A DNA stretch of 64,000 bases from an uncultured Nitrospirales bacterium (GTDB lineage Bacteria; UBA10199; JADGCS01): the NCBI GenBank assembly GCA_964609965.1, contig CAZSTS010000003.1, positions 199,537 through 263,536 on the forward strand, read 5' to 3'. Below the pieces are notes generated by a model. The model did no database searches. It was not told where the DNA came from and saw only the letters and a list, made by a program, of their open reading frames with translations. Shown here piece after piece: positions 88 to 46,729 of the stretch; the first letter of the stretch is position 1; each line of letters opens with the position of its first letter. The position numbers were made by a program, and so were the translations under genes.

Positions 88-264
88 ATGAATCCCGTTA
101 GACCTTGGCACTATACATATGTTTTACTTAATGAGAAGGCAGGTAAATTTTATACAGGAGCTACATCTAATTTAAAAAATCGCCTCCACCCTGTTAGAGG
201 CTTTGCATCTAAGGGTGGTGGAGGCCTTGCCTCTAACGGGGTAAAAGGAGGTCTAACGGGATGA
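88..264 (+). other. 58-aa small ORF with a GIY-YIG-like N-terminal motif (YTYVLLNEKAGKFYTGATSNLKNRL). Possible nuclease remnant. Its stop overlaps the start of the next gene.
   Basis: Manual translation from ATG at 88. It is below the 60-aa cutoff of the ORF track. The motif resembles GIY-YIG/UPF0213 proteins, but the C-terminal half is glycine-rich, unlike the family, and spans a hairpin at 183-224. Confidence 0.25.
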
Positions 265-1634
265 ATAAGCAAACAGTAGTGATATCTGGAGATTGGGACG
301 AAGGGATAGATCTTGTAAAAGAGTGTCTTCAGGGATCAGCGTATGAAGCAATGATTACAGCACCATCAGAGGTGCGGGCGGTCTTAAAGAAGAGACTTTC
401 TGACATGTATATATTTTGCCTCAAAGGTGCCGTTGGAGACGTCTTTTTACGCATTAATGAACTAAGAAGAGCAAACGAATCTGTTCCCATATTTATATTT
501 TCAAAGGTCATTGATATCGAATTTATCGTTGCTAACATTAAAAATAATGTGAACGATTTTTTTGTACGTCCTTTAAATAAAGAAAAACTTTTAAATAAAA
601 TAGGAAGAGAGCTTCATCTTTACCAGCTCACAAAAAAAGTTTTTATGAGCACATCTTCATCTTTGGATGATAGTCATTTTGAGAACATGATAGGCTGTTC
701 TAAACAAATGCAAGACAATTTTCAGATGATCTCTGTTGTGGCAAAATCTAATGCTACTGTTCTTATCACAGGAGAATCTGGTGTTGGAAAAGAGTTGGTT
801 GCCAAAGCTGTGCATCGTTGCTCAGAGAGGGCAGGAAGTCGTTTTGTAGATTTAAACTGTGGCGCTATTCCCAAAGAACTATTAGAAAATGAACTTTTCG
901 GACATGAAAAGGGCGCATTTACGGGCGCGCATAGAAGGTATCAAGGAAGCTTTGAAACGGCACATCAAGGCACGCTTTTTCTAGATGAAATTAGCGAAAT
1001 GGATGTTATGTTGCAGGTTAAATTGTTACGTGTTTTGCAGGAGAGAACTATTACGCGCATTGGAAGTAATGAGAACATTAAGGTCGATGCTAGAATTATT
1101 GCTGCTACCAATCGAAAAATTCATAAACTTATCGAGGATGGCCTTTTTAGAGAAGACCTGTATTATCGTCTCAATGTGGTCAATATAGATATACCTCCTT
1201 TAAAGGAGCGCCGAGATGATGTTCCTTTGTTGGCTATGCATTTTTTGGAGTACTATTCTGCAAAGAATAACCGTATTTTTCTCGATTTTTCAAATGACGC
1301 TATGGAAGCTTTGATCAACTATGATTGGCCAGGCAATGTGAGAGAGTTAGAGAATACTATCGAACGTTTAGTGGTTCTCCATGATAGTTCTCAAGTTAAG
1401 GCTAGTCATTTGCCACCACATATTCAAAATGTGGATTGTGCTATTGGTTATAGTGATGAAGCTCAATCTTTGCAGGGTGATGGTAAGATTATTCCTTTAG
1501 AGGATTTAGAGCGGCAAGCCATTGAAGCGGCTCTTATGAAATTCCAAGGAAATATAACTATAGCGGCAAAAAAACTAAAGATAGGACAAGCAACGCTATA
1601 CCGCAAAGTTAAAAAGTTTGGTTTGCAAGTTTAA
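261..1634 (+). CDS. Sigma-54-dependent transcriptional activator (NtrC/Fis family) with an atypical N-terminal pseudo-receiver domain
   Basis: AAA+ sigma-54 interaction domain with Walker A GESGVGKE, the GAFTGA motif and an ESGVGKE/ELFGHEKGAFTGA region. C-terminal Fis-type HTH (AAKKLKIGQATLYRKVKKFGL). The N-terminal receiver-like fold lacks the canonical phospho-acceptor Asp. RBS AAGGAGG lies upstream. Confidence 0.9.
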   Translation: MNKQTVVISGDWDEGIDLVKECLQGSAYEAMITAPSEVRAVLKKRLSDMYIFCLKGAVGDVFLRINELRRANESVPIFIFSKVIDIEFIVANIKNNVNDFFVRPLNKEKLLNKIGRELHLYQLTKKVFMSTSSSLDDSHFENMIGCSKQMQDNFQMISVVAKSNATVLITGESGVGKELVAKAVHRCSERAGSRFVDLNCGAIPKELLENELFGHEKGAFTGAHRRYQGSFETAHQGTLFLDEISEMDVMLQVKLLRVLQERTITRIGSNENIKVDARIIAATNRKIHKLIEDGLFREDLYYRLNVVNIDIPPLKERRDDVPLLAMHFLEYYSAKNNRIFLDFSNDAMEALINYDWPGNVRELENTIERLVVLHDSSQVKASHLPPHIQNVDCAIGYSDEAQSLQGDGKIIPLEDLERQAIEAALMKFQGNITIAAKKLKIGQATLYRKVKKFGLQV

Positions 1635-2096: not shown

Positions 2097-3758
2097 ATGC
2101 GAGCAACAGTCCCCTTTAAAATCACCTCAGATAATGACATAATGAGCGTTTTTGAGAATTCATTTCAAAAGCTCCAAAAAGCTCAGGAAAAAATATTTTT
2201 TTCGAGCCGTCTTTGTAATGATATTAAAATAGCCTTTATCGAAGCTGTAGCAAATGCTGTCAAACATGCTGGAGAACTAAAGAAGCACGGTGCTGTCGAG
2301 GGTAAGTTTGTCTTGGATGATAAAGTCATTGGGTTTGAAGTCTACGATCACGGAGCAGGATTCGCTATTGACGAAATTCCCGTGCCCAATCTTAATGATC
2401 TTAAGGCTTCTGGCCGTGGTGTTTTTATGATGAAGCAACTTGGGGATATTGTGACTTATCGGGAGCAAAAAAATCACAACACTTTGCTTTTTAAAAGAAA
2501 TCTTGTTGGTCATCATGGGAGTTCTCGCGAGCTTGATTTACTTTATGATCTTAGCGAAGCCATTATTAGTAATGCGAGCAAAGAAGAAGTTTACCAAATT
2601 GTACTAGGACAGGCCTTAGAGCTGTTTCATGTAGAGAGAGCTTCGATCCTTATTTATGATGAAAAGGAAAAGGTGCTCAAAGTAGCTGCTAGCCGAGGGA
2701 TTCCTCAAAAAGTGCAGAAGCAAACATCGGTGCGCTCAGGTGAAGGCGTGAGTGGTTATGTTTTTCAACACTCAAGACCCTTGCTCATAGAAGATGTTGA
2801 TAGAAATACTCGCGGCATAGAAAAAAAGGAACATTATAAAACATCATCTTTTATTTCAGCTCCTATGATCTGTTCACCACTGAGGTTAGATGAGAAGCCC
2901 ATTGGTGTTATAAATCTCACAGATCGCATTGATGGCAAAAGCTTTACAAAAAAAGACCTCAAATTGCTTTCTACAATAGCCAATCAAGCGATGGCCTGTT
3001 TGTATATTAGGGGGTTGGTAGATGAAATCAAAGAAAAGAACAGGCTTGAACAAGAGATGGAGCAGGTTCGTGTTATTCAAAGTTCTTATTTGCCAATAAA
3101 GCCACCAAAAGTGCCAGGGTATAAAATAGCTGGTCGTTGTGAAATGGCTCAATCAGTTGGTGGAGATTATTTTGATTTTCTGTATTTTGATCCACTGCTG
3201 TATCTTGTTGTGGCCGATGTTTCTGGCCATAATACAAGCAGCGCTGTGACCATGGTCAATTTTCGTTCTCAGCTCAAAGCTTACCTTAATGAGTTGTCAG
3301 ATCCTGCCAATATATTAACTAAACTTAATAAATCCCTTTATCACGATCTCACTCATGCGGAGCAATTTGTATCATGTTTGCTGGTCAAAATTCATACAAA
3401 AACAGGGCAGTTTGAATTAGCTAATGCGGGTCATTATCCTCCTGTCTTTCTAAAAACTCATGTGCCCATTACTGAGGCAGGTATTGTGCTTGGTGTTCAA
3501 GAGAATGAGGAATACAAAACAATAAAAGGTAAGATCAATCAAGACGATGGCATGATTATGTACACAGATGGCGTGATCGAAAGCATGGATGGAGAGTGCA
3601 ATGTATTTGGTTTGAGTCGACTTCATGAGATAGTTTCAAACAAAAGTTCTGATGCCAGTCAGGTTTTAGTGGATCATATTATTGATTCTGTATTAGGCTA
3701 TAGAGCGAGTGCTGGTGTGTTGGATGACATTACTGTTGTGGGAGTGAGAAGAGGTTAA
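2097..3758 (+). CDS. Fused RsbW-like serine kinase (HATPase) / GAF domain / PP2C (SpoIIE/RsbU-like) phosphatase
   Basis: N-terminal N-box (EAVANAVKHAG), G1 (DHGAGF) and G2 (GRGVFMM) boxes. Central GAF-like region. C-terminal PP2C motifs (GDYFDF, ADVSGHN, YTDGV, DDITVVGV). Confidence 0.8.
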   Translation: MRATVPFKITSDNDIMSVFENSFQKLQKAQEKIFFSSRLCNDIKIAFIEAVANAVKHAGELKKHGAVEGKFVLDDKVIGFEVYDHGAGFAIDEIPVPNLNDLKASGRGVFMMKQLGDIVTYREQKNHNTLLFKRNLVGHHGSSRELDLLYDLSEAIISNASKEEVYQIVLGQALELFHVERASILIYDEKEKVLKVAASRGIPQKVQKQTSVRSGEGVSGYVFQHSRPLLIEDVDRNTRGIEKKEHYKTSSFISAPMICSPLRLDEKPIGVINLTDRIDGKSFTKKDLKLLSTIANQAMACLYIRGLVDEIKEKNRLEQEMEQVRVIQSSYLPIKPPKVPGYKIAGRCEMAQSVGGDYFDFLYFDPLLYLVVADVSGHNTSSAVTMVNFRSQLKAYLNELSDPANILTKLNKSLYHDLTHAEQFVSCLLVKIHTKTGQFELANAGHYPPVFLKTHVPITEAGIVLGVQENEEYKTIKGKINQDDGMIMYTDGVIESMDGECNVFGLSRLHEIVSNKSSDASQVLVDHIIDSVLGYRASAGVLDDITVVGVRRG

Positions 3759-6460: not shown

Positions 6461-8032
6461 TTACATCGTTTTAGGAGATTCTTCAATTAACTTTCTTCTC
6501 CTTTGCAAGGGAACAAATATCAATAAAAGGCTGAGTAATATAAGAAAGAGAGTGTAATTTTGAGGGGTTGCTTTAGTTTTGAGTGAACAGCTTGATAGGT
6601 TTGTTGTTTCGTCGGTAGAGTTCAGTGAAGCAGAAATATCAATCTCATCAATCAAGCTAACTAGAGCTTTATTATTAAGGGATCCTTCAAGAGGGCAATA
6701 CATGTCATCGTCATCTGCCATGTGAAAATTAGAGTTTTCTTCAAAGTAAGTGTAGCTAATTCTGTCTAGAGAGGCATCAATAGCTGTCCGTGAAGCCAGT
6801 GTGATGTCGATGTTTTGAATGTTGCTACTATTAATTCTCACAAAACTGTAATTGTCATTATCTTCGTTTGACATATCATTTTCATTATAAAATTCAGCTC
6901 TTCCTTGAATGTCTGCTAAAGAAGAATCAAATCTTGCAATGGATGTGGCAAATAATTCCGGAATTTCTTGAACATCCACTGTATAATCTCCTGAATTCAG
7001 AAGGGGAATAATGTAAATCCCTAGGTCATCATCATCTAAACAGTTTTGAATATTAAAATGGCTTGAAGTGCCATTATTTGCTGTCGTGCTCGAATTGCTG
7101 CAGATAATACTAGTGGCTTGCGAATAAGTTTCGCAGAGAGGAGATTCGTTATTTCTGATACTCACAACAAGTGTATCCATGGGAGTTCCATTTGCATCAG
7201 TGACTTCGCCAGATATGCTGTTTTCGATTTCTGCACCGTACATCCATTGCAATGTGGCAATATCGTCAGGGTGAAGGCTAATGAGATGTGCACCAGTTCC
7301 TCTGATAAAGCGAGGAAACATGGTGGGGAGATAGCGAGCATAATGAGTATCGATTGTTCCAGAGAGAATATCCTGATACATTTGGTAATGCGAGAGAGTG
7401 TGATCAAGACCTATGACGTGGCCTAGTTCGTGTACGATGATGGCGAATAGATCTATGAGTTCCAAATCCTGGACAGCGTCTGATTGGTCATTATAGTAGA
7501 GTCCATTAATGAATAGATGGGAGCTGATAATGTACTCGGGATTATTGTAGGATCCTTTGATACCTGTTAAAGATTGAGCTCCAGAAGCTCCTTCACTTCC
7601 TTTGGCTTCCAAAATTTCACCGGTATTATCAAAGCCAATAACGATGTAATTATCTCTTTGTGAGTTTGTGGTGAGGTCTGTATTTGTGGGATTGGCTTCG
7701 GCGTAGATGTGATTGCCTGCGATTGATTCCCAATTATCGATTGTAATTTCTTCTTCTTCTGTTCCAATATATTCAAATTCAATGCCTGTATCAGAAACAC
7801 TTTCCCAGATACTAAAGGCTTCTTGTACGAGGGCGAGTGATTGTTCAAAACTCAATTTGCCTAAACCCTTTGGATCAACTTTGTATTTGATTGTTTTAGA
7901 AGTGTCCCAGACAAGAGGTGTGTCTTGGCTCGCCATGTAAAGAGGATTGCCTGCGTAAACTTTTGGAGTGCCGAGCACTGAAAAGAGTACGATAAAAATC
8001 ATCAATAAGAAAATGTGTGAAAATCGAACCAT
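6461..8032 (-). CDS. Secreted zinc metalloprotease of the metzincin type with a C-terminal hydrophobic anchor and basic tail
   Basis: Signal peptide. HELGHVIGLDH matches HExxHxxGxxH. The C-terminus ends in FLILLSLLLIFVPLQRRRK, which could be a sorting signal. Confidence 0.75.
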   Translation of the reverse strand: MVRFSHIFLLMIFIVLFSVLGTPKVYAGNPLYMASQDTPLVWDTSKTIKYKVDPKGLGKLSFEQSLALVQEAFSIWESVSDTGIEFEYIGTEEEEITIDNWESIAGNHIYAEANPTNTDLTTNSQRDNYIVIGFDNTGEILEAKGSEGASGAQSLTGIKGSYNNPEYIISSHLFINGLYYNDQSDAVQDLELIDLFAIIVHELGHVIGLDHTLSHYQMYQDILSGTIDTHYARYLPTMFPRFIRGTGAHLISLHPDDIATLQWMYGAEIENSISGEVTDANGTPMDTLVVSIRNNESPLCETYSQATSIICSNSSTTANNGTSSHFNIQNCLDDDDLGIYIIPLLNSGDYTVDVQEIPELFATSIARFDSSLADIQGRAEFYNENDMSNEDNDNYSFVRINSSNIQNIDITLASRTAIDASLDRISYTYFEENSNFHMADDDDMYCPLEGSLNNKALVSLIDEIDISASLNSTDETTNLSSCSLKTKATPQNYTLFLILLSLLLIFVPLQRRRKLIEESPKTM

Positions 8033-8195
8033 AGTATTAAAGTCAAACTACCTTAAATATTTAGTTATTAGATAGATACTTATCTTTTCGTCAATTTTCA
8101 CCAAAAGTTGTGTGAAGGACGTGATGTTTATAAAAAATGTGAATAACTATGTAACCAATTGATATTATTAAAATTAACAGGTGTCAATTTCTCGT

Positions 8196-8275
8196 TTTTC
8201 GTAGGGGTAGGCCTTGTGCCTACCCGAATATTATTATCAATTTTACGGGCGCCCACAAGGGACGCCCCTACAGTT
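8196..8275. ncRNA. Structured intergenic element with two adjacent hairpins (gggtaggc-cttgt-gcctaccc and gggcg-cccacaaggga-cgccc) whose loops are complementary (CTTGTG/CACAAG), enclosed by gtagggg/cccctac
   Basis: Base-pairing seen directly in the sequence. Located between the murJ stop and the metalloprotease start. Confidence 0.35.
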
Positions 8276-8304
8276 AATATCCAAGTTTATTCTTTTAATC
8301 TGAT

Positions 8305-9969
8305 TTATCGAGCCAGTTTTTTCAGTATCTTACTTAAGAAAAACTGAGCATCTTTGACTTTGAGAAGGTAGGCTGTTCCAAAATAAACAGGGAGAGCCAC
8401 AGCCATGGGGATGAGGACGTAAATGAATTTTTGAGAAAGCGATTCAGTGCCAAAGTGTTGCTGAAGATATTCCAGACTAAAGTAAACAGCTATTCCCATA
8501 ATAACAGCTGCTAAAACCGTTTTTAAAGTATTGAGCCAAAGGTTCATTGTCCACACGCCTTTCAATTTTTTTCTAAAAAAGAAAGCCTGCAAACTCACAT
8601 CAATAAAAGCCACAATAGCTGTGCAAAGGGCGATGGCCCAATGGTCAAGTCTGAGTACAAAAATAAAAATGCTGTTGATCAGAGCGTTAATCGCAATCGA
8701 CAAAAGTGAGATCTTCATGGGGGTCTTGGCATCATGAAAAGCTAAGTAGGCAGGTTGATAGATTTTGATTAATGCGTATGAAGAAATACCTAAGGCATAG
8801 GCCTTAAGGGCATAAGCTGTTTGGAAGGTGTCGTTTGAATCAAAATGACCATGTCCATAAATAAGAGAAATAATAGCTTGCCCGAGGATAATAAGCCCCA
8901 CCATTGAGGGCAGGGTGAGAAAGAGGCTCATTTGAATAGAGGACGTGATAGATTCACGGAATTTTGTTTCGTTTCTTTGGATGGTCATTTGAGCAAGAAC
9001 AGGGGCAAAGGCTGCGGCAATGGACACTCCAAAGAGTCCTAAGGGAAACTGCATGAGACGAAAAGAAAATTGGAGGTAAGACACAGAACCATCAGCGAGA
9101 AGTGAGGCAAATACTGTGTTAACAAGAACATTCACTTGAACAGCAGCACCAGCAATGATGGCAGGGCCTGTGAGCTTGAGAACTTTGATTAGGGCTGAAT
9201 CTTTAAGTTGAAAATTTAGTTTTGGGAAAAACCCCAATTTTGATGCACTTGGAATTTGAAAAAGAAACTGCCCCAGGCCTCCAAGCAATGTTCCAAAGGC
9301 CATGCCTGATATGGCAGATGATAGCGCAAGGTAGTCAGAGGTTTCAAAGGGAATTCCATTAAATATTCTATCAAAGGTGTTTGAAATGTAATCGGGTGAT
9401 AGCAGATAAGCTAATAGGAGCCCCACTGTAATGGAAATAAAATTACAAAACGTAGAAGCGCTAAAGGGGATAAAGAATTTCTTATTTGAGTTGAGGACTC
9501 CCATGAGAAGCGCTGCTAAAGAAACAAAAAAGATGTAAGGAAAAAGTATGCGCAAAAGATGAACTGTGAGATCAAATTTTTGAGGATCTCTCAGAAATCC
9601 TGCTCCAATTACGCTCACAATCTGTGGGGCGAAGATTTCTCCTAAAATGACGGTAACACCCATCACAAGGACGATGAAGGTAATCGTTTTATTGGCAAGA
9701 AGCCTGGCCTCTTCTTTTTGTCCTGTAGCGAGTTTTTGAGAGAAAATGGTGATAAAACTTTGTGACAAGGCTCCTTCAGCAGCCAGGTCTCTCAAAAGAT
9801 TTGGGATTCGAAAGGCTACATAGAATGCATCGAGCACTGCACCGGCCCCAAAAAAGAAGGCAAAAATCTGTTCACGGACAAGCCCAAGTATGCGACTTCC
9901 AAAAATCGCGATTGTAGCAATAAGAGCTCGTTTTTTTGTTCCTTTAGTATGGTCTGTGTCTATCGACAT
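8305..9969 (-). CDS. murJ: Lipid II flippase MurJ (MviN)
   Basis: 554-aa polytopic membrane protein with characteristic MurJ N-terminal motifs (GSRILGLVREQIFAFFFGAG, FRIPNLLRDL). Confidence 0.85.
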   Translation of the reverse strand: MSIDTDHTKGTKKRALIATIAIFGSRILGLVREQIFAFFFGAGAVLDAFYVAFRIPNLLRDLAAEGALSQSFITIFSQKLATGQKEEARLLANKTITFIVLVMGVTVILGEIFAPQIVSVIGAGFLRDPQKFDLTVHLLRILFPYIFFVSLAALLMGVLNSNKKFFIPFSASTFCNFISITVGLLLAYLLSPDYISNTFDRIFNGIPFETSDYLALSSAISGMAFGTLLGGLGQFLFQIPSASKLGFFPKLNFQLKDSALIKVLKLTGPAIIAGAAVQVNVLVNTVFASLLADGSVSYLQFSFRLMQFPLGLFGVSIAAAFAPVLAQMTIQRNETKFRESITSSIQMSLFLTLPSMVGLIILGQAIISLIYGHGHFDSNDTFQTAYALKAYALGISSYALIKIYQPAYLAFHDAKTPMKISLLSIAINALINSIFIFVLRLDHWAIALCTAIVAFIDVSLQAFFFRKKLKGVWTMNLWLNTLKTVLAAVIMGIAVYFSLEYLQQHFGTESLSQKFIYVLIPMAVALPVYFGTAYLLKVKDAQFFLSKILKKLAR

Positions 9970-19123: not shown

Positions 19124-20089
19124 CTATTCCATATCTGCAATTCCCGTACCTTCTGTGTTAGAAGCTTGTCTGTTATCGCTAATAGGATGTTTTCCAAAAA
19201 CAGTGTGGCGTGTTCGTGATTTTCCTGATTCTCGTTGTGGAGAATCTAGAACATTAAGAGTTGGACCGTTTCGTGTTTGATACGTGGTGAGGCTTTGGCC
19301 AAGTGTTCCATCAATCCCTTCGGTCAATTCATCGAGTTCCATTGCAAGAGCTAATGTTTCGGGACGATATTCAGTGTTCGAAAGATTTTCATAGGGTTCT
19401 TCGAGTTCAATTGATTCAGCACCAGGAAAATCTGCAAAGGCATCAAAGGGTTCTACATCAGTAGCATCTGCGAGGGCATCAAGGGGTTCAGCATCAGGAA
19501 CAGCCAAACCGCGAGCTTCAACCAGCGCATCATGGGATGTGTAAAACGAAAGTGAACCTGTGAGATATTCAAATCCTTCGTTTTCTCCGTTTCCTTTGTT
19601 TGGTTTTTGAATAATATAAGCAGCAGCGCCGTATTCTTCAGTGTTTCTTCCCAGATCTCTTTCTAAAACACCTAGGAGGCCTTCTGCTGGAATGGTTGTT
19701 GCGGTTAAAGTATAGCCTCCATCCTCTGGTTGATAATCTGCAAATCTTGTTAATTCGAGATCCATGAAGTTAGATATATCATCGGCAAAAATAGTTGTGT
19801 TGAAGGGCCTGTCTAGATTTGAAAATTCACCATCAGTTCGGGTCATTGTGACAGTTGCGCCTTCTTTGAGTGATTTTTGTCTAGCGCCGTTTGAGTCAGT
19901 GTACCATGTGTAGGCATCTGAGTTTGCTGATAAGGTACTGGGATCAACACCGTTTAATTCGGCAAGTCTTTCAAGGCTTGAATAATCCCAAGCCAAATTA
20001 GCTACGCTTTCAGCAGTAACTTCTTGATCACTATCTCTGACCATGTCTTCAAACTGTTCTCTAGTTGGTATTGTAAATTCTATTTGCAT
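19124..20089 (-). CDS. Hypothetical acidic protein (321 aa); distal gene of the unknown cluster
   Basis: ORF only, no recognisable domains. Convergent with the response regulator, with a 6-bp gap. Confidence 0.45.
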   Translation of the reverse strand: MQIEFTIPTREQFEDMVRDSDQEVTAESVANLAWDYSSLERLAELNGVDPSTLSANSDAYTWYTDSNGARQKSLKEGATVTMTRTDGEFSNLDRPFNTTIFADDISNFMDLELTRFADYQPEDGGYTLTATTIPAEGLLGVLERDLGRNTEEYGAAAYIIQKPNKGNGENEGFEYLTGSLSFYTSHDALVEARGLAVPDAEPLDALADATDVEPFDAFADFPGAESIELEEPYENLSNTEYRPETLALAMELDELTEGIDGTLGQSLTTYQTRNGPTLNVLDSPQRESGKSRTRHTVFGKHPISDNRQASNTEGTGIADME

Positions 20090-22786: not shown

Positions 22787-23614
22787 CTAATATAAAATCA
22801 AATATCCAGCTATAAATAGCCATGCCAGAAGATCAAATAGTCCTAAGGTAAGAAAAATAATAGACCAGATCACAGCAGATGTGCCTCTAAAGATGTTTGT
22901 TTCCCATTCACCAGGGATTCTAATTTCTTTTTTAAGGAAACCAATCAGAGCATAAAGAAAAAACCATGCATGAAGACCGATGAGCATGATACTAAAACTG
23001 AATCCAAAAAGTTTTAGTGCCAAAGGAGAGGTGAAAAAGAAAAAGAAGGCTGCCATGATAAGAAACAAAACAATTCCACAAAGAGATGCTTTTCTAAAAA
23101 TCAATTTTAAGTTTTGAAGTCTTGTGATTTTATTCTTTGAGGCAAGGGGTTTTAATTTATCAAGTCGTTTCAGTTCTCGTTCTTTATAGGCTTGTAGATC
23201 AAAGGTTCTAATGGCATCCCATTTTCTATCACTAATTTTCTTTATGTATTTAAGATCAGTTTTTCTCAAAAATCCTAAAACTTCAAAAAGCACAGATTCT
23301 CTGATTTTGTCTTCTGTGCTCAAAGGTGTTGTCTTGTTTTTGACCATCATGCCACAGCCAATAAAGATGCTGGCTAGAAACAGACCAAAGAAGAGGGCGA
23401 TTATTAAATAGATGAGACTGTCTGCTTTGTCTTGATAGCCAGTAAAGCCAAGATAGAGGCAAAAGAAGAAAACCAGTCCACCAAATAATAAACCAGTCCA
23501 ATACGCGTGTTTTCCAAAGCGTGTTTCTGCCCAGGCTACATATTTTTCGACTTCCACGTTTTGATTTTCTAAAATGGTTTGGGCTTGTTTTGAAAAAAGA
23601 TTTTTTAAGGACAT
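22787..23614 (-). CDS. Integral membrane protein (275 aa, about 5 TM helices with a basic cytoplasmic loop)
   Basis: Hydropathy pattern only. Confidence 0.5.
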   Translation of the reverse strand: MSLKNLFSKQAQTILENQNVEVEKYVAWAETRFGKHAYWTGLLFGGLVFFFCLYLGFTGYQDKADSLIYLIIALFFGLFLASIFIGCGMMVKNKTTPLSTEDKIRESVLFEVLGFLRKTDLKYIKKISDRKWDAIRTFDLQAYKERELKRLDKLKPLASKNKITRLQNLKLIFRKASLCGIVLFLIMAAFFFFFTSPLALKLFGFSFSIMLIGLHAWFFLYALIGFLKKEIRIPGEWETNIFRGTSAVIWSIIFLTLGLFDLLAWLFIAGYLILY

Positions 23615-23637
23615 GGTATTGTTTAATCAGAGATACA

Positions 23638-24669
23638 TTAGTCTTCGAAGAAAGTATCAATCCAAGGTGATTCTGGTTTTGAATTATCCCAAGGTCTCAG
23701 GCCTAAAAACTCTTCAGTAAAAGCCCAGGGGTTAATGCTAGAACCTGTTATCCCGTCTATCCAAAACTCTGTTACTTTATCACCTGCTTCTGGTACTGTG
23801 GCCATTTCAAGTGTAGGGTCCATGTCATCATCTTCAAGTGTAGGTACTCGAGTTGTTGGTGCAATCATAGATACATTGGTTGGAGTATGTCTGAAGCGCA
23901 TTTTGTCTCCAAATTGGACAATATCTCCTGTTTTAAGAGTCCATGCATAATACCCAGTTACTTCCTTAATCACAGATGCTGTCATCGTATATGGGTCAAT
24001 TTGAGTAATTCTAATATGATCGTTTAGCATTTCTTCCACGCTAGCTGGCTTATCGCGCGTTCTTTCATATTCTATCACATATATTTCAGTTGGTCTTGAG
24101 CGGCTTTTTAAATTGCGGATAATGTAAATAGGGATATTTTTGCTGAAAGTAGTTATACTGAATTCATCTTTTTTCTCCTCATATTGCATTGCCAATAAAT
24201 TACCTGAGCGTTGGAAGGAATAGCCCCCACGTTTTCTGAGATATCTAAAAATGGATTGTTTAAGAGGACCTACATCAGGTGTTAACAGGATGGGCACATA
24301 GCCTTTTTGTAAAGCCCTAGTTGTGAAAGCGCTAGAAGCCAGGTCTTTTATTTCAATTTGTGTGGGGAGAGTTGCGTGCCATGTACCAGCGGCGATGGCG
24401 CCAGCTGGTTCGGGGACAGCATGAGCTGATGACGCGACACCACGTTTGCTAGCGTCAGCTGCTAAACCTGGTGCGTCCGGGACAGCGCGAGCGGGACCTG
24501 ATCCACTGGGACCTACTAAAACAAAACCATCACTGTCTTCGTTGCACAAATTCGTTGATCCGTATTGGAGCAACCATTGCATTTTGGTGGGCATAGTTTG
24601 AAATACATCAGCTCCTGGCAAAGCAGTATTTCCAAAACCAAGAGTAGGATTTAAAGTTAAATAACTCAT
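23638..24669 (-). CDS. Hypothetical cytoplasmic protein (343 aa) with an internal Gly/Ala/Pro-rich linker encoded by a GC-rich patch
   Basis: No signal peptide. Degenerate P-loop-like string VLVGPSGSGPARA. Lies 23 bp upstream of the membrane protein gene. Confidence 0.5.
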   Translation of the reverse strand: MSYLTLNPTLGFGNTALPGADVFQTMPTKMQWLLQYGSTNLCNEDSDGFVLVGPSGSGPARAVPDAPGLAADASKRGVASSAHAVPEPAGAIAAGTWHATLPTQIEIKDLASSAFTTRALQKGYVPILLTPDVGPLKQSIFRYLRKRGGYSFQRSGNLLAMQYEEKKDEFSITTFSKNIPIYIIRNLKSRSRPTEIYVIEYERTRDKPASVEEMLNDHIRITQIDPYTMTASVIKEVTGYYAWTLKTGDIVQFGDKMRFRHTPTNVSMIAPTTRVPTLEDDDMDPTLEMATVPEAGDKVTEFWIDGITGSSINPWAFTEEFLGLRPWDNSKPESPWIDTFFED

Positions 24670-24671
24670 AA

Positions 24672-25331
24672 TTAAATAAATGTAGGCAGAACAAACGCTA
24701 CTACTTTTCCGTCATTTCTATTTTGTTTTAATTTGATTCTCTCTCCAGGAAATAAAGCAATGCTTTGTCCAGGTGTGAGTGGGAGCCATGTGCCAAGGTC
24801 ATCCATGAAATAAAAGATAAGATCACCCGAACGGTTTGTATTATGGTCTGTGTTAGTGAGGATCCATCTTGCTTTTCTTGTTCCTTTTGCTCTGTGTGGA
24901 TCGAGTTCAAAACTCACATCAAATTCTCTAAGAGAATTAAAGTCTGTTTTTAGAAGACGTTGACCAGTTCGTTCTGATTTTCTTCTTCTCGCTCTTATTT
25001 CTGTAGTGAGTAAGCCAATGAGTTGTTCACTCAATGTCATTCTTATTTCTGGTTCTAGATCCCAATACGAAGTTCCTCCAGAAGCATCAGGTCCTTGTTC
25101 TCCATATCTTTGCCTTACTCCAAAATCTAAATCATTTTCTGTATCCTCACATACAAATGAATCAAGACAGGCAAGTGGTAGTCTTGTTTGAGGTGTGTCT
25201 TGAAATAGAGCAGGATCAACTAATTGAAAGGCCTGTACGGTTTGTTCTCCTGTGCCTAGCCATTGAGCCATGTTAAGATAAAATAAACTCCCAGTGGCTT
25301 CGGGTCTAAAATTGGACATGTAACTGGACAT
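24672..25331 (-). CDS. Hypothetical cytoplasmic protein (219 aa), translationally coupled to the 343-aa protein
   Basis: 2-bp gap to the downstream gene. No known motifs. Confidence 0.5.
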   Translation of the reverse strand: MSSYMSNFRPEATGSLFYLNMAQWLGTGEQTVQAFQLVDPALFQDTPQTRLPLACLDSFVCEDTENDLDFGVRQRYGEQGPDASGGTSYWDLEPEIRMTLSEQLIGLLTTEIRARRRKSERTGQRLLKTDFNSLREFDVSFELDPHRAKGTRKARWILTNTDHNTNRSGDLIFYFMDDLGTWLPLTPGQSIALFPGERIKLKQNRNDGKVVAFVLPTFI

Positions 25332-25443: not shown

Positions 25444-25463
25444 TCGTGTCCTTGGGGACACGA
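25444..25463. promoter_or_regulatory. Perfect palindrome TCGTGTCC-TTGG-GGACACGA; candidate operator or UAS (internal copy)
   Basis: 8-bp perfect arms with a 4-bp spacer, about 115 bp upstream of the start of the 24672-25331 gene. Same motif as 27626-27645 and 27658-27677. Confidence 0.6.
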
Positions 25464-25465
25464 AG

Positions 25466-25505
25466 GAGTTTGGAGTGATGAGTAATGAGCGATGAGAAAT
25501 GACAT
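25466..25505. repeat. Tandem heptanucleotide array (ggagttt ggagtga tgagtaa tgagcga tgagaaa tgacata)
   Basis: 7-nt periodicity directly adjoining the palindrome. Confidence 0.6.
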
Positions 25506-25519
25506 AAGGCATATGTCTT

Positions 25520-26062
25520 TTATATCAATTCATAATAGAAATAACATGTCGAGTAAGTATTAGAAGGTTCGCAGACGCATTCAATGGATTCATCTGAGTG
25601 TTCTATGTTATAAATTTCACATTCACAGGGAAAAATAACAGAAGGGTGGCCATACCAGTCTAGGTAATTTGTTTCGAATTCAAATGTGTCGTCAGAATAA
25701 ATCACCGCATTCCATATGAGTTGGCCTGAGCTTGTTTCAAAGTCCATCATGTCATCATAGGAATAAACATCTAAGTATGTTGGTAATTCCAAATCAGGAT
25801 CATCATACCCGTAGTCATCGCATGTAGAATAATATTCATTAAGCTCATACGATCCAAAAAAGCTACGAGATGAACCCTTATAATAACTAGACCAATAGTC
25901 TAGGCCGCCTGAGGGATCATCTTCATCACAATCATCGTATTCCTCGTAGATGTACTCTGTTTCGGTGTATGAATAGACTTCATCATCATGCCAGTACTCA
26001 TGACAAGATGTGAGCATAAAAAATGAGATCAAACAGAAGCTTAATAATATATTTTTCATCAT
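25520..26062 (-). CDS. Extremely acidic Tyr/Asp/Glu/Cys-rich lipoprotein (180 aa)
   Basis: Lipoprotein signal (LTSC). The mature part is dominated by Y, D, E and 9 Cys (ECVCE, CEC). Confidence 0.55.
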   Translation of the reverse strand: MMKNILLSFCLISFFMLTSCHEYWHDDEVYSYTETEYIYEEYDDCDEDDPSGGLDYWSSYYKGSSRSFFGSYELNEYYSTCDDYGYDDPDLELPTYLDVYSYDDMMDFETSSGQLIWNAVIYSDDTFEFETNYLDWYGHPSVIFPCECEIYNIEHSDESIECVCEPSNTYSTCYFYYELI

Positions 26063-26086
26063 ATTTCCCTCACCTTGGAATCATGG

Positions 26087-26386
26087 TTACAAAATGATGT
26101 GCAAAAATCCAAACAACCCACAGTTTCTGTGGTGGTGTCGATTATAGCAGGGGTAAGAGCAACCATGTCCATGGCAACAACTTCTGTGGGAGTAGCGTGA
26201 GTAATGACGATGGTGTGATTTGTAATGTTTGACGTGTTTGGTTACATGTTTGTGGACATGTTTTTTATGGACGACGTGACTTTTATGGCTATGTTTGTGG
26301 TGTTTTTTAGCATAGCTGTCTGGGCTATGAAGCATGAGCATCGAAAAAACGACTATAACACTAATAATGAGTAGTACTTTCTGCAT
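26087..26386 (-). CDS. Hpn-like His-rich, Cys-containing secreted protein (99 aa)
   Basis: Signal peptide, then KKHHKHSHKSHVVHKKHVHKHVTKHVKHYKSHHRHY ... SCCHGHGCSYPC. Resembles His-rich Ni/Zn-binding proteins such as Hpn, including the CC-HGH element. Confidence 0.55.
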   Translation of the reverse strand: MQKVLLIISVIVVFSMLMLHSPDSYAKKHHKHSHKSHVVHKKHVHKHVTKHVKHYKSHHRHYSRYSHRSCCHGHGCSYPCYNRHHHRNCGLFGFLHIIL

Positions 26387-26577
26387 GATTCCCTCCTATT
26401 GTTAAAATCCCCTTAATTTCTGTGTTCTGAAAAGGTTAATCGATGGGAGGGCTGAAATAGTTTTAATTAATTGAGATTGATGTATTTATAGCGGAATATC
26501 GTAAATTATGCGAAGTTGTTGCTTGAGTGAGAAGTTAGCGCGGTTCTTTTTTCAACAAAAGAGATCCTTAAACAAGA

Positions 26578-27015
26578 TTAAAACTTCTTACCAGGTCCAC
26601 CGTGAATTTCAGGATATTTGGTTTTTTGAGTTTCTGAAGCAGCTTCTTCAGCTGGAAAAAATTCTGCGCCACCATTTGCTTTAAAGGCTCTTCGAGCACG
26701 CCAGTCTAGAATCCTGGTCACGTAATCTTGAGCAACTGATCTGGATTTTGTTTTTAATACAGCAGCTAGGTCTTGAGAGGCTCTGGCTAAACACTCAGCT
26801 TGTGAGGGATCTGCTTCAGGATCCTCTTTCACTAATTTACTACGACCATAATCAATGAATTCTTTTTTTTCTACATCTTCGTTGATGCCCCAGGTAGTAA
26901 AACCTTTTCCATTGTCAAAGAGTATAAGCTCAGGATGTAGGTCGTAATAATCGGTTTCTTTACTAGCTGCTGTTTCAAACGAAGCAAAGTTTACACATGG
27001 AAATTGGTCATACAT
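26578..27015 (-). CDS. Hypothetical 145-aa protein, paralog B of a tandem pair
   Basis: Shares blocks YYD..P.L..FDNG.G.TWG.N.DVEK.E...YGR, ARASQDLA.VL.TK..SVA.DYVTRILD and FKANGGA.FFPAEEAA with the neighbour. Confidence 0.55.
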   Translation of the reverse strand: MYDQFPCVNFASFETAASKETDYYDLHPELILFDNGKGFTTWGINEDVEKKEFIDYGRSKLVKEDPEADPSQAECLARASQDLAAVLKTKSRSVAQDYVTRILDWRARRAFKANGGAEFFPAEEAASETQKTKYPEIHGGPGKKF

Positions 27016-27083
27016 GGCATTTTTCCTTTACAATTTAGGAGATTGTTTTTTTGTTTAAAAACAAAAAGATGTCTAATAATATT

Positions 27084-27539
27084 TTACCATTTACGTGAGT
27101 TTTGTGGTGCAAAAAGTTCTGTGCCAGAATGACTAGGTTCGTCAGCTGCTTCTTCAGCAGGAAAAAACGCTGCACCACCATTTGCTTTAAATACTGTGGC
27201 TGCGTCTTTGTCTAGAATTCTGGTAACATAATCAGTGGCAACGCTTTTAGGTTTAGTTTGCAAAACCAGAGCCAGATCTTGAGAGGCCCTTGCTAAAGCT
27301 TCGGCATCTGTGACTTCTTTATCAGAATCACTAGCTTGCAATGCTTTTCTTCCGTATGCGGTAAGTTCACGCTTTTCTACATCACTATTGAGACCCCAGG
27401 TAAAAGCACCATCACCATTATCAAAGGGTTTGAGGTCAGGATTTTGGTCGTAATAACTAAGTTGCTTTTCAGCAGGGTTGTTAGCGACTTCAGGTGCAGT
27501 TTCATTTCTATATTGTGCGGATAGGGCTTCATCTAACAT
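27084..27539 (-). CDS. Hypothetical 151-aa protein, paralog A of a tandem pair; first gene of the cluster
   Basis: See paralog B. No signal peptide. Confidence 0.55.
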   Translation of the reverse strand: MLDEALSAQYRNETAPEVANNPAEKQLSYYDQNPDLKPFDNGDGAFTWGLNSDVEKRELTAYGRKALQASDSDKEVTDAEALARASQDLALVLQTKPKSVATDYVTRILDKDAATVFKANGGAAFFPAEEAADEPSHSGTELFAPQNSRKW

Positions 27540-27625
27540 AGTATTTCTCCTTCTAACGGGCTGACATTAATACAAGTGCCTTACTAGTATATTTATCGCA
27601 TGAAAAAAACTGAAGTTACGCGGGT

Positions 27626-27645
27626 GATGCAATTTTCGTGTCCTT
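27626..27645. promoter_or_regulatory. Palindrome TCGTGTCC-TTTG-GGACACAA; candidate operator or UAS (proximal copy)
   Basis: About 95 bp upstream of the start of the first cluster gene. One mismatch in the right arm. Confidence 0.55.
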
Positions 27646-27657
27646 TGGGACACAAGA

Positions 27658-27677
27658 TTTGAAGAAATCGTGTCCTC
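27658..27677. promoter_or_regulatory. Palindrome TCGTGTCC-TCAA-GGACACGC; candidate operator or UAS (distal copy)
   Basis: 32 bp centre-to-centre from the proximal copy, which is three helical turns. Confidence 0.55.
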
Positions 27678-27915
27678 AAGGACACGCCTGATAGCGTTAA
27701 AGCTGTTAAATATTGTTGTATCTTGTTGAAATATTATGCTGATTTCCTATTGCCATTACGACAAATTCTGTTTTTTGACGCCCAAAATTTATGATTTAAT
27801 AAGCAACACAGATGAAATATAAGCCGATAAATAAAGTATAACGAAGAGTGAAGAAAGCGATACATTAGCATATAGGGTGCCAAAAATCGCAACAATTTAA
27901 AGCATATAGGATACC

Positions 27916-28839
27916 ATGAATAAGCAAAAATCACTTAAAACGCTTAATGTGTTTCAATATGATGATTACCGCCAATTTTTAGCTGATTTTTATGAGCTGA
28001 AAAAGAAGGAAATGCCCACTAAGTTCTCATATCGTTTTTTGAGTCAAAAAGCTGGGTTTCAAACATCTACTTTTTTTCATCGTGTTATTATTGGTAAACG
28101 TAATCTCACTTTAGAGAGTATACGTAAAATCGCTGCTATTATTCCTCTTACTGGACGTCCTTATCAATATTTTGAAACACTTGTTCTCTTTAATCAGGCC
28201 AAAACAGAAGAAGAGAGAATGATTCATTTTGATGCTCTTAAAGAATTTAAAGAATTCATAGCTCTCAGACTCATTAACGAAGATCAATCGACTTACTTAT
28301 TAAAATGGTATTACCCAGTTGTGAGAGAGATGATTAAATGGGATGGTTTTAAACCTGATGCTAGTTGGATAGCCAACAAGATTAGACCTAGAATATTTGT
28401 TAAGCAGGCTGAAGAAGCTATGGAAGTTTTGCTTAAACTTAAATTAGCAACAGTTTTAGCTGATGGTACGTGGGAACAATCTTATCCAAAAATTATGACT
28501 GAAGAAGAAGGTTTAGGCCAAGAAGCCATTAGCTATCATAAAAATGCAATTCACTTAGGCCAACAGGCTCTGACTTTACCAGCCAAAGATAGACATGTAA
28601 GTGCCATGACTATTTCCATGTCTCCTGCGTTGTTTGAATTGATGCGCCAGAAAATTTACATCTTTCATAAAGAGATGTCTGGTCTTATTTCAAAAAAACT
28701 CGATAAAACACTTTTAAGAAAAAACAATATTGATGAAGAAATGATTAACTCTAAGGGATTTTTAGATGTCTCAGAGGTTTGTCAGTTTAATATGCAAATG
28801 TTTAAGGTGGCTAAAACAGGGAGAAAAGATGAAGAATAA
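27916..28839 (+). CDS. Putative HTH transcriptional regulator (TIGR02147-like family), divergent from the unknown operon
   Basis: N-terminal YRQFLADFYE...FSYRFLSQKAGFQTSTFFHRVIIGKRNLT pattern. The family assignment is from memory and is weak. Confidence 0.4.
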   Translation: MNKQKSLKTLNVFQYDDYRQFLADFYELKKKEMPTKFSYRFLSQKAGFQTSTFFHRVIIGKRNLTLESIRKIAAIIPLTGRPYQYFETLVLFNQAKTEEERMIHFDALKEFKEFIALRLINEDQSTYLLKWYYPVVREMIKWDGFKPDASWIANKIRPRIFVKQAEEAMEVLLKLKLATVLADGTWEQSYPKIMTEEEGLGQEAISYHKNAIHLGQQALTLPAKDRHVSAMTISMSPALFELMRQKIYIFHKEMSGLISKKLDKTLLRKNNIDEEMINSKGFLDVSEVCQFNMQMFKVAKTGRKDEE

Positions 28840-30922
28840 ATTATATACGATCATGGGTGTCCTCATTACTGTATTTTGTGTTTCTTGCTTTGGATCAGGC
28901 ATGTCTGATTCTTTAGACACAGGCACAGGTCTTGATGATGAAGGTTCAACAACAAGTATTACGGTCATTGGTAATCCTTCGCTCAAAGTGAATAACACAG
29001 GGACTGTTTATCTTATTGATAACCTAGACTCAGACAATTTTAAGTTCTTTAGCGATACAAGTATTGAAAGTGTTTTGAGTCTCACAGTAGCAAATACAGA
29101 TTTAGCTGAAGACGCGATTCTTGACACTCCTGTTCCAGCTATTGATGGTTTTGTTCTTAGTCCAAACAATGAAACTGAAATGGTTTTTGTTCTTGAGGCG
29201 TCATTCGTAGTTAATGACCAAAATTGCTTTGTTGTTTTTGTTGATAGCGCAGAAGAAAAATGTATTCACGAAGCTAAAATTCAAGACAAACCTCAGTTTG
29301 ATGCAAATGGAAATGTGTATTTCTATGATAATAATTTAGAATTAGGTACAGAGGGGCTTGTAAAGTGGGCTAAGGCCACTGGCGAAAAAATCTACATTAC
29401 TAATCCTAATTTTGAACTTGCACAGCAGATGGTACACGCTGATGGCACAGTCTATCTGACTGATACAGCGGGATCTTTAAGAACAGTGAGCCCTGATAAT
29501 ATACTCAGTAATCGTCTTTCGGGTGATCGTGTTGATTCATTTAATATTGTAGATGCCAATATTCTCTTGCTTCAAGGTGAGATTACTTTTGAAGAAGAAC
29601 AGAGCTATGGGTATTATTTTTATGATCATACGGAGAAAGAAATTATCGCGGTTTTAGATTACAATGGCAATGCTGACCTTTCATCCTCTATGTATGTTGA
29701 TGGTGAAAATAGGATCTTGGTTCAAGATGGTGACAGTATAATCAAGATTTATCCTGGTGTGTCTGAAATAATTGAGCTTGGTTTAACTCAAATTAATTTT
29801 AGCATAGTTCATGATAATACCCTTTTTGCCTCTGGTAGGGTAGAAGGCACGCAAAAGTTTGTTAAACTTGACTTAAGTGATGAAGAGGCTGCTCCTGTGA
29901 CAGTGCTCAGTGGTCACGAAGTGTATAATGCAGAACTCGGTTCTAACTCTAATCTATACTATGATGCGCAGAACTTTAATACTAATCAGTACTATCTTGG
30001 TATTTTAGACGTCACAACCAATGATGTGATTTTTACTGAAGAGGTTTTAGATGGTTCTGTTGTTAATATTGATTCTGTTTATTCAATCAATAATAATTCA
30101 TTTTCTGAAATCACGTTTGAAACAAATACACCTTACGCTCTTGTGAGAGCTGCCACTGCGCAACGTGGGGAATTTGTTAAAGGCAGACTATTAGAAGATG
30201 TTGATCTCACAATTGATTTTGATGCTGAAATCTATCGCAAAAGATTTCAGAATGGTAAGCTACGCTTCACTGTTGACAGTGCTGCTAGTATAAGAGTGAT
30301 TAAGCCAAGATTGAACTGGGTTTATGAAGTAGAATCAGATGCAACCGACACTCAGGACTTAAGCCATTTGAATATTGATAAAATCACATTGTTATCTGCT
30401 TCAGAAAACCTCGTTGGTATTTTGGCAACAAGAAAAATCTATGGCGATCAAGTGTTTAAAATCTACTCTTATGAGGTTAATGAGTCTGAGAGATCTGTGA
30501 GCTTTACTTTTGAAAAATCTATCATGCTAGATGATAGGGTGTATAATGTTAAAGCAAGCGAAACTGCTGATCGTATCCATTTAGTAAGTCGTCGTGGTGA
30601 TATTACGATGTATAATTTTGATCTAGAATTATTGGCTGAATCGCGTGTGTTTTTTGGACGAGGTAATGTGAGTATTGTTTCTGATACAAATGGTTTCTTA
30701 TTACTCAGAAGCAGCTTCATGACTTCGGCAAATATCTTAAGATCAAAACTATTGATTTTAGATGTGAGCGCTGGTGACTACAATCACATTCAAACAATCA
30801 GAGTAAAAGCAAACAGACACTTACTAAATGCTTCACTGTATGACTCTGAAACAATGGCTATAAAGACTTACTCGCGAACCACTGATATGATCGAATATTA
30901 TATTCTAGAAGAAAACGAGTAG
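28829..30922 (+). CDS. Large lipoprotein (698 aa from MKNKLYT), possibly a beta-rich or propeller-like surface protein
   Basis: Start moved to the ATG at 28829, which has a GGGAGAAAAG RBS. Lipobox VSCFGSG. No catalytic motifs. Confidence 0.5.
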   Translation: MKNKLYTIMGVLITVFCVSCFGSGMSDSLDTGTGLDDEGSTTSITVIGNPSLKVNNTGTVYLIDNLDSDNFKFFSDTSIESVLSLTVANTDLAEDAILDTPVPAIDGFVLSPNNETEMVFVLEASFVVNDQNCFVVFVDSAEEKCIHEAKIQDKPQFDANGNVYFYDNNLELGTEGLVKWAKATGEKIYITNPNFELAQQMVHADGTVYLTDTAGSLRTVSPDNILSNRLSGDRVDSFNIVDANILLLQGEITFEEEQSYGYYFYDHTEKEIIAVLDYNGNADLSSSMYVDGENRILVQDGDSIIKIYPGVSEIIELGLTQINFSIVHDNTLFASGRVEGTQKFVKLDLSDEEAAPVTVLSGHEVYNAELGSNSNLYYDAQNFNTNQYYLGILDVTTNDVIFTEEVLDGSVVNIDSVYSINNNSFSEITFETNTPYALVRAATAQRGEFVKGRLLEDVDLTIDFDAEIYRKRFQNGKLRFTVDSAASIRVIKPRLNWVYEVESDATDTQDLSHLNIDKITLLSASENLVGILATRKIYGDQVFKIYSYEVNESERSVSFTFEKSIMLDDRVYNVKASETADRIHLVSRRGDITMYNFDLELLAESRVFFGRGNVSIVSDTNGFLLLRSSFMTSANILRSKLLILDVSAGDYNHIQTIRVKANRHLLNASLYDSETMAIKTYSRTTDMIEYYILEENE

Positions 30923-45636: not shown

Positions 45637-45748
45637 GAAACTCTCCTTTTATAAGGTTTGGGGTAGAGTAATTAAGGGGGGGGTGGAATGCAAGAGATTT
45701 TGGAGGGAGGGCCTTAGGGCCTTGGTGTCTTGGAATATTATTCTGCAC

Positions 45749-45764
45749 GGACACATTTGTGTCC
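45749..45764. promoter_or_regulatory. Palindrome GGACACA-TT-TGTGTCC between the divergent OMP gene and a hypothetical gene
   Basis: Same GTGTCC/GGACAC half-site as the operon palindromes, but in the everted arrangement. Confidence 0.4.
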
Positions 45765-45855
45765 ATTTTATGCTTAGAAACGCAACAAAAGCTGTATTAA
45801 TTTCGATAATGGAGTCAAATGATATTCATGAATCATTACGAATAGGAGTTGCTAG

Positions 45856-46512: not shown

Positions 46513-46729
46513 TAAATCTTGGTAAAATTACAGGATCAAATTTTTCCCTCCCTTGCGACAGGATAAATCCTTCAAGTTTGTTTAAAGCAGATGGAAGCCT
46601 TTCAAATCATTAATGTTTTTATGTATGTCTGGGCACAAAAGTGCCCAAAAAGATTTTAAACTGGCAACAGTGGGTGTCTTATTGCCGAAAAATAGAACAT
46701 AAATAGAAAAGAATATTAAAGGAGTTTTT

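Follow-up and report, generated by a model that had tools for sequence, protein, structure and literature searches.

The DNA analysed here (the window) is a 64,000-nucleotide stretch of contig CAZSTS010000003.1 from an uncultured Nitrospirales bacterium. Its source is an uncultured marine population with a GC content of 39%, whose NuoL protein is closest, at 55-66% identity, to metagenome-assembled genomes labelled Deltaproteobacteria. We studied three short palindromes in the window, which share the unit yGTGTCC-N4-GGACACr and lie near the gene of a TIGR02147/DUF4423 protein. They are candidate operators of this protein. The sites and the genes beside them are as follows.

25444..25463: site 1, TCGTGTCC-TTGG-GGACACGA, 0 mismatches, perfect palindrome, 113 nt 5' of the ATG (25331) of a 219-aa gene and 57 nt past the stop codon of a 180-aa gene
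27636..27655: site 2, TCGTGTCC-TTTG-GGACACAA (TCGTGTCCTTTGGGACACAA), perfect core with 1 outer-arm mismatch, 97 nt upstream of the ATG (27539) of a 151-aa gene
27668..27687: site 3, TCGTGTCC-TCAA-GGACACGC (TCGTGTCCTCAAGGACACGC), perfect core with 1 outer-arm mismatch, 129 nt 5' of the ATG at 27539 and, on the other strand, 229 nt upstream of the TIGR02147 start codon
27781..27832, plus strand: conserved block ..AAGCAAC..CGATAA..GTATAAC, from an alignment of the window with the related loci L138 and L273
27916..28839, plus strand: candidate regulator, TIGR02147/DUF4423, 307 aa, divergent to the putative target operons
28829..30922, plus strand: operon partner, lipoprotein-like, about 700 aa, start overlapping the end of the regulator gene

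The symmetric core of the palindromes is GTGTCC-N4-GGACAC, and TCGTGTCC-N4-GGACAC is perfect in all three sites. The arms of site 1 reach 9 bp (TTCGTGTCC/GGACACGAA) once the flanking T/A pair is counted. Sites 2 and 3 stand in tandem, 32 bp apart from centre to centre, which is an integral number of helical turns. A search of the 64-kb window for TCGTGTCC-N4-GGACACGA with up to 3 mismatches gave exactly 3 matches, while 0.10 were expected from shuffled sequences and none of 100 shuffles held three or more. A preliminary description of this DNA had reported three perfect, operator-like copies that could hardly be due to chance. The three copies exist and a chance origin is indeed implausible, but only the one at 25444-25463 is perfect. 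The other two had been placed 10 nt too low (27626-27645 and 27658-27677), although the distances to the genes and the 32-bp spacing were right. On the plus strand of the window, the hexamer GTGTCC/GGACAC occurs 12 times, and 8 of these occurrences fall in the three sites and in an everted palindrome described below, all of them intergenic. The inverted motif is present three times in 104 kb of the source genome, always within 2.5 kb of the TIGR02147 gene, and a further 20 kb on each side of the window gave no additional copy. Wider scans were uninformative. The perfect 9-bp-arm palindrome returned 13 unrelated singletons from a genome collection that lacks the source genome, which defines no regulon; a 14-base pattern returned chance singletons among the matches listed (at least 120) in viral contigs; and a literature search with the motif strings found unrelated eukaryotic papers only.

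The product of 27916-28839 matches NCBIfam TIGR02147 with 214.1 bits (cut-off 50) and Pfam DUF4423 with 90.5 bits (cut-off 30). Its AlphaFold2 model (pLDDT 90) has an N-terminal XRE-like helix-turn-helix (HTH), a winged-helix-like domain and C-terminal helices. Residues 49-59 (QTSTFFHRVII) contain the predicted recognition helix; in the model, the third HTH helix spans residues 53-58 with an N-cap at 49-52. Within this family, the HTH varies in the stretch bounded by the conserved KAGF and GKRNLT motifs, and it is this stretch that forms the third helix of the model. In Foldseek comparisons, the N-terminus resembled C.BclI, C.AhdI, C.Esp1396I, SinR, HigA and lambda repressor, and the middle domain resembled MarR, TcaR and Stl. 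As all fold matches are HTH DNA binders, the protein is a credible DNA binder on the strength of its model. The family is large, with 15,518 clusters at 50% identity (E <= 1e-10), and occurs in Bdellovibrio, Fibrobacter and many uncultured bacteria.

The partner at 28829-30922 has no match in Pfam or NCBIfam. A protein of this kind, with 420-745 aa and a lipoprotein-type signal, follows every TIGR02147 orthologue that we examined, with an overlapping or adjacent start, and the partners at L138:10911-12992, L149:4269-6332 and L141:10915-12186 are homologous. Hence, by sequence comparison, the TIGR02147 gene and its lipoprotein-like partner are a conserved pair. The conserved block at 27781..27832, about 160-195 bp downstream of sites 2 and 3, is likely the promoter of this operon.

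Phylogenetic footprinting through the genes behind the sites was impossible, because a search of 5.8 billion proteins found no homologue of the 151-aa protein other than its own paralogue. The contigs that carry this protein are all 99.8-100% identical to the window, so the comparison had to use the regulator. Orthologues of the 27916-28839 protein share 42-73% identity, and seven loci with usable flanks were compared. This covered 10-21 kb for each relative, next to about 104 kb of the source genome.

The motif recurs beside TIGR02147 orthologues in two further marine species, at the loci L138 (regulator 71% identical to that of the window) and L149 (57% identical).

L138: This locus holds six copies of the core motif within 4.4 kb. 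Three of them form an array with an exact 32-bp period that ends 224 nt upstream of the regulator start, as compared to 229 nt in the window. Single copies lie 74 nt 5' of a divergent gene and 88 nt 5' of a MopE-like gene, and one further copy occupies another divergent intergenic region. A distance of 178 bp separates the promoter-proximal site from the array. Synteny with the window holds on the regulator side (partner, NT5C, CNNM, thiolase), whereas the orphan genes on the other side are different ones. In an alignment, the two proximal sites of the array match the window pair, as does part of the inter-site sequence. Hence, the array was inherited with the regulator side of the intergenic region.

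L149: This locus has two copies, both perfect, whose arms measure 10 and 11 bp. They are situated 66-67 nt 5' of two paralogues that follow the regulator operon, and a consensus TATAAT ends 2-4 nt ahead of each site.

L141, L144, L146 and L147: These orthologue loci carry no copy of the motif in the 1-10 kb of flank on each side.

The yGTGTCC palindrome is the sole recurring GC-containing palindrome across these loci. At L146, a different perfect palindrome, CCTGGAAC..GTTCCAGG, stands at 3442-3465 and 4636-4659 of the relative's contig and flanks AbiEii-like toxin-antitoxin genes.

One alternative is a REP (repetitive extragenic palindromic)-like dispersed repeat or a mobile-element remnant, with no regulatory role. 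Short GC-rich palindromes in AT-rich intergenic DNA have this appearance, and the near-identical tandem units of L138 point to a recent duplication. The preliminary description had itself named a ubiquitous dispersed repeat as the outcome that would speak against operators. What we found is three copies in 104 kb, all beside one gene, and no transposase or RAYT (REP-associated tyrosine transposase)-like gene nearby. In addition, the motif is conserved between species whose regulators share 57-71% identity, in contrast to the intergenic DNA and the genes around it. We consider a mere repeat scarcely credible.

The presence of the motif was set against the recognition helix. The helix S-T-[FY]-[FL]-H-R-V-I-I occurs only in the orthologues P0003, P0004, P0005 and P0011, and all three of their loci with enough upstream flank (P0003, P0004, P0011) have the motif. 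None of the four loci with other helices (FHNVIK, FIYLVIQ, FFPLVIA, FIPSILA) has it in its 1-10 kb of flank. In a neighbour-joining tree calculated without the HTH region, P0011 is basal to a clade that mixes motif-positive and motif-negative proteins. Thus, the motif tracks the recognition helix and not overall relatedness. For P0007, whose helix is NFIYLVIQ, a single GC-rich variant palindrome, (T)CGTGCC-TAAT-GGCACGA, was found at L147:854-871 and L148:220-237, about 190 nt upstream of the start codon, which is the same relative position as that of the arrays. From its sequence and place, this may be the orthologous operator in diverged form.

The loci of the window, L138 and L149 have no genes in common other than TIGR02147 and its partner. 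For this reason, the divergent HTH protein at 27916, which the preliminary description had listed among several candidate regulators, emerges as the best candidate. Linkage of the motif to the regulator gene across species and its co-variation with the helix are both observed, in a small sample. From these sequence comparisons, we propose that the three palindromes are operators of the TIGR02147 protein and that they gate a variable island of orphan genes; we give this reading a probability of about 50%. The actual binding, its stoichiometry and the direction of regulation we infer.

The sites could instead be operators of another, unlinked transcription factor, with the proximity of the TIGR02147 gene being incidental. 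All evidence for protein-read operators applies equally to such a factor, four orthologue loci lack the motif, and our view covered about 104 kb of the source and 10-21 kb per relative. An incidental neighbour should, however, not be one of the sole two genes shared by the three motif-bearing loci, nor should the motif follow its recognition helix and the tandem array be inherited with its upstream region. Hence, we regard an unlinked factor as unlikely.

That the sites are read by a protein at all is indicated by the half-sites. Across the 22 half-sites of 11 sites (window 3, L138 6, L149 2), TGTCC is invariant (22/22). It is preceded by G in 19 and by A in 3 cases, and at position -7 there are 16 C and 6 T. 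The spacer is free, with 10 distinct 4-nt sequences in 11 sites and only CTGA used twice. From one half-site centre to the other, the distance is 10 bp, or one helical turn. The symmetry of the outer flanks within sites is 24 as compared to a cross-site expectation of about 21 (permutation p = 0.23). As TGTCC is invariant, the spacer is free and flank symmetry is no greater within sites than between them, the pattern points to a protein-read sequence and not to a compensated structure. The operator-like behaviour suggested by the preliminary description thus holds in three species, as a conserved yGTGTCC half-site with a free 4-nt spacer.

The same statistics bear on the possibility that the palindromes work through hairpins of RNA or single-stranded DNA, such as attenuators, terminators, 5' stabilisers, processing sites or targets of RNA-binding proteins. 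If transcribed, the hairpins would be stable (-10.8 to -13.8 kcal/mol). Genes of the same strand flank site 1, the L138 site labelled b and both L149 sites. Site 3 was flagged as terminator-like and is followed by a T-run on the coding strand, and T-runs also follow several L138 copies (GGACACGCTTTTTTCA twice, GGACACGTTTTTTTCA, GGACACGGTTTTGTTATAGTTTT). For a structure, the five inner pairs should covary, but they are invariant in 11 sites of three species, and the symmetry of the outer arms is no better than the half-site consensus predicts. Window sites 1 and 2 have no T-run. A terminator role fails for the arrays, because they sit in divergent promoter regions and, like the L138 site labelled a, have no upstream gene to terminate. 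In L149, transcription is predicted to start after the TATAAT and within the left arm, which would leave the hairpin incompletely transcribed. An Rfam scan of the whole window detected no family. Some copies may have a terminator-like side role, but we find it highly unlikely that hairpins are the main function of the motif.

For operators of the TIGR02147 protein, we propose the following mode of action. One putative dimer would occupy each palindrome, with the recognition helix (..STFFHRVII..) of either subunit reading one yGTGTCC half-site. As sites 2 and 3 are three turns (32 bp) apart, two dimers could lie on the same face of the DNA and bind cooperatively. The regulator would thereby gate, beside its own gene, two neighbouring operons made up of lineage-specific orphan genes, of which several encode secreted proteins. 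These putative target operons are composed of the following open reading frames.

25520..27539, minus strand: putative target operon 1, control by the sites suggested by position
27084-27539, minus strand: 151-aa gene, operon 1
26578-27015, minus strand: 145-aa paralogue of the 151-aa protein, operon 1
26087-26386, minus strand: 99-aa secreted protein, His/Cys-rich, operon 1
25520-26062, minus strand: 180-aa acidic lipoprotein-like protein, operon 1
22787..25331, minus strand: putative target operon 2, control by site 1 suggested by position
24672-25331, minus strand: 219-aa gene, operon 2
23638-24669, minus strand: 343-aa gene, operon 2
22787-23614, minus strand: 275-aa membrane protein, operon 2

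None of these seven proteins (151, 145, 99, 180, 219, 343 and 275 aa) has a match in Pfam, NCBIfam, PHROGs or PADLOC. The 99-aa secreted protein is very rich in His, Lys and Cys, and the acidic 180-aa lipoprotein-like protein is rich in Cys and Tyr. In L138, the gene behind one of the sites (7853-8488) encodes a MopE-like copper-binding protein. From the composition of these proteins, a metal-related theme among the island genes behind the sites is possible.

The sign of the regulation is the weakest step of the proposal and a guess. We assume repression that would be relieved by some signal. Repression, possibly with looping, is suggested because the L149 sites overlie the predicted start and because the L138 promoter-proximal site is 178 bp from the array. 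Activation would fit the window sites too, which lie at about -65 to -120 from any plausible start.

The preliminary description had compared the tandem sites to upstream activating sequences (UAS) of sigma-54 activators. In this case, the sites would be bound by hexamers of an activator, either the one encoded at 261-1634 or one elsewhere, which would contact the sigma-54 polymerase at a -24/-12 promoter. The layout is indeed classic. With tandem palindromes at about -90 to -130 from the gene and a distance of three turns between them, it resembles the NtrC sites at glnAp2, and both the 32-bp spacing in the window and the 32-bp period in L138 agree with it, yet 6 of the 11 sites are single and unpaired. 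The resemblance was not fanciful, as the same pair of palindromes serves as a sigma-54 enhancer elsewhere. A metagenome search for two GTGTCC-N4-GGACAY copies 4-34 nt apart gave at least 120 loci (L153-L272). The dominant class among the matches listed comprises 60 loci with 60-75% GC, in which yGTGTCC-N4-GGACACr occurs twice, 33-35 bp apart with a peak at 34 bp. In 49 of these 60, an orthologous NtrC-type activator gene precedes the pair and is itself preceded by a histidine kinase gene. In most loci whose alignment reaches the C-terminus, the 3' end of the activator gene is within about 100 nt of the pair. The activators are 57-80% identical to one another and share the HTH ..SDHASLLKIMRRHGI.., and no NCBIfam equivalog reaches its cut-off with the class activator. 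In 44 of the 49 activator-bearing loci among the matches listed, the pair is followed by a sigma-54 promoter (TGGCC..CTTGCC) and then by a TPR lipoprotein gene. The promoter offsets from the pair fall at 62-64, 72-75, 84-88 and 95-99 nt, and these steps of about 11 bp indicate helical phasing. Thus, the yGTGTCC pair is a genuine sigma-54 enhancer in many high-GC contigs. The module, exemplified by L174:3836-8447, is widespread and apparently unnamed.

For the locus in the window, this regulon is weak evidence, because the search was conditioned on the motif. No TIGR02147 gene was found among the matches listed (at least 120 loci), and the palindrome shared by this locus and the high-GC enhancers is best read as convergence. 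The same search also picked up unrelated tandem arrays in diverse metagenome contigs, with a hairpin-forming unit of GGTGTCC-N4-GGACACC and flanking G/C runs (L156, L165, L169, L200, L201 and L231 with a period of 19-24 bp; L213 with 36 bp).

The source organism does use sigma-54 and is rich in activators. Canonical promoters lie in intergenic regions on the minus strand at 20185-20170 (perfect), 22670-22655 and 62054-62039, so canonical -24/-12 elements are to be expected in this organism. The first two are in the same island as the sites, and therefore part of the orphan island is, from these elements, probably sigma-54 dependent. Among the sigma-54 promoters, TGGCACGCATCTTGCT is 81 nt upstream of a 321-aa orphan gene, TGGCATCATCCTTGCA is upstream of a gene pair for 67-aa and 154-aa (HTH) proteins, and TGGCAGGCAATTTGCA is 36 nt upstream of a 515-aa gene. 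Between the window sites and their genes, in contrast, there is no GG-N10-GC. The preliminary description had likewise found no convincing element there, and the best matches, GGCACTTGTATTAAT and GGTGTACCCGTTAAT, both lack the -12 GC. The six L138 sites have no sigma-54-like promoter in 12 kb, and in L149, the 66 nt that lead up to the ATG contain none. A good match at 27882-27867 (TGGCACCCTATATGCT) was rejected as a promoter served by the sites. It is placed upstream of them, where the other strand probably encodes the 5' leader of the regulator gene, and neither L138 nor L273 conserves it; the orthologous L138 region reads ATGCACCCAATATACA.

The activator gene at 261-1634, the only one in the window, was confirmed, but its product was dismissed as the regulator. 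This protein shares 35% identity overall with the palindrome-using class but has an unrelated HTH, and the HTH helices of two further activators encoded just upstream of the window are also unlike the class. In L138 and L149, the motif has no linked activator gene. Taken together, we judge sigma-54 enhancers at this locus distinctly unlikely. The activator genes are part of an unusually dense regulatory cluster (L274:5727-9787 and window 261-1634), in which a histidine kinase and three sigma-54 activators in a row are followed by a STAS anti-anti-sigma protein and a GAF-SpoIIE phosphatase/HATPase protein.

Several observations weigh against operators of the TIGR02147 protein. The correlation between helix and motif comes from seven loci (3 positive, 4 negative), a neighbour-joining tree and negative flanks of 1-10 kb. 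The Foldseek matches of the protein are weak (E > 0.3), and the literature on DUF4423 comprises one Bdellovibrio proteomics table, in which it appears as a proteomics match only. A sigma-70 scan found no gene-strand promoter near the window sites. With site-to-start-codon distances of 66-129 nt and arrays further upstream, the promoter geometry is not consistent. The T-runs after site 3 and several L138 copies also count on this side. Finally, an unlinked activator is still conceivable, because an unrelated family of sigma-54 activators uses the identical pair.

The everted palindrome GGACAC-ATTT-GTGTCC, which the preliminary description had noted at 45749-45764 and called related to the operator motif, is present but belongs to a separate motif family. 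This family has the consensus TGGrCAC-AwwN-GTGyCCA, with four to five sites similar to the one at 45749.

45748-45765 (window): everted family
46631-46648 (window): everted family, TGGGCACAAAAGTGCCCA
L274:2731-2748: everted family, TGGGCACAAATGTGTCCA
L275:1883-1900: everted family, TGGGCACAAACGTGCCCA
L141:19880-19897 and 19957-19974: everted family, two sites 5' of a second DUF4423 paralogue

Each copy is 68-240 nt upstream of a gene start, and four copies are present in about 104 kb of the source genome. As the everted family tolerates GGGCAC, whereas the inverted motif never departs from TGTCC, these are two separate motifs with a merely similar-looking hexamer.

If operators of the TIGR02147 protein are the correct reading, they would be the first candidate DNA target for TIGR02147/DUF4423, a large family without a characterised member. 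The locus yields a testable prediction that consists of a protein, a 16-bp operator and a specificity helix, and it suggests how an uncultured, deltaproteobacterium-like marine organism may control a group of orphan genes specific to its lineage. It is also a cautionary example of one palindrome pair used by unrelated regulator families. As the identical pair serves unrelated sigma-54 activators in other phyla, motif identity alone cannot name the regulator.

Among known systems, the high-GC NtrC-type enhancers share the identical core, the Y/R flank and the tandem arrangement roughly three turns apart. The locus differs from them in its spacing (32 bp as compared to 33-35 bp) and in having no downstream -24/-12 element, no linked activator and many single sites. 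NrdR boxes, to which an ATP-cone/zinc ribbon repressor binds, stand before nrd genes as tandem 16-bp palindromes with a distance of about 31-32 bp. They resemble the window pair in that two 16-bp palindromes are an integral number of turns apart, but sequence, regulator family and regulon differ, and there are no nrd genes here. With intrinsic terminators and REP hairpins, the sites have in common a GC-rich stem of 6-11 bp, a tetraloop and the T-runs after some copies. They are set apart by an invariant stem without covariation, copies in divergent promoter regions and a low copy number.

The sites also resemble the operators of Cro/CI (XRE) repressors and of the C proteins of restriction-modification systems, where dimeric HTH proteins, as proposed here, read half-sites one turn apart, adjacent palindromes are bound cooperatively (likewise proposed here) and the regulator gene lies beside its targets. 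Unlike these, the TIGR02147 protein comprises about 300 aa, carries C-terminal helices and an additional winged-helix-like domain, is accompanied by a conserved lipoprotein-like partner of about 700 aa, and has its sites spread over several promoters of a variable island instead of one switch region. It is possible, though doubtful at present, that TIGR02147/DUF4423 proteins form a distinct class of two-domain (XRE-HTH and winged-helix) local regulators. Such a regulator would have a secreted lipoprotein of about 700 aa as its partner and would gate a hypervariable island of orphan genes, part of them encoding secreted proteins. A short operator would be copied before newly arrived genes, and among orthologues the helix (49-59) would co-evolve with it. 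In kind, the system is an ordinary regulator-operator pair.

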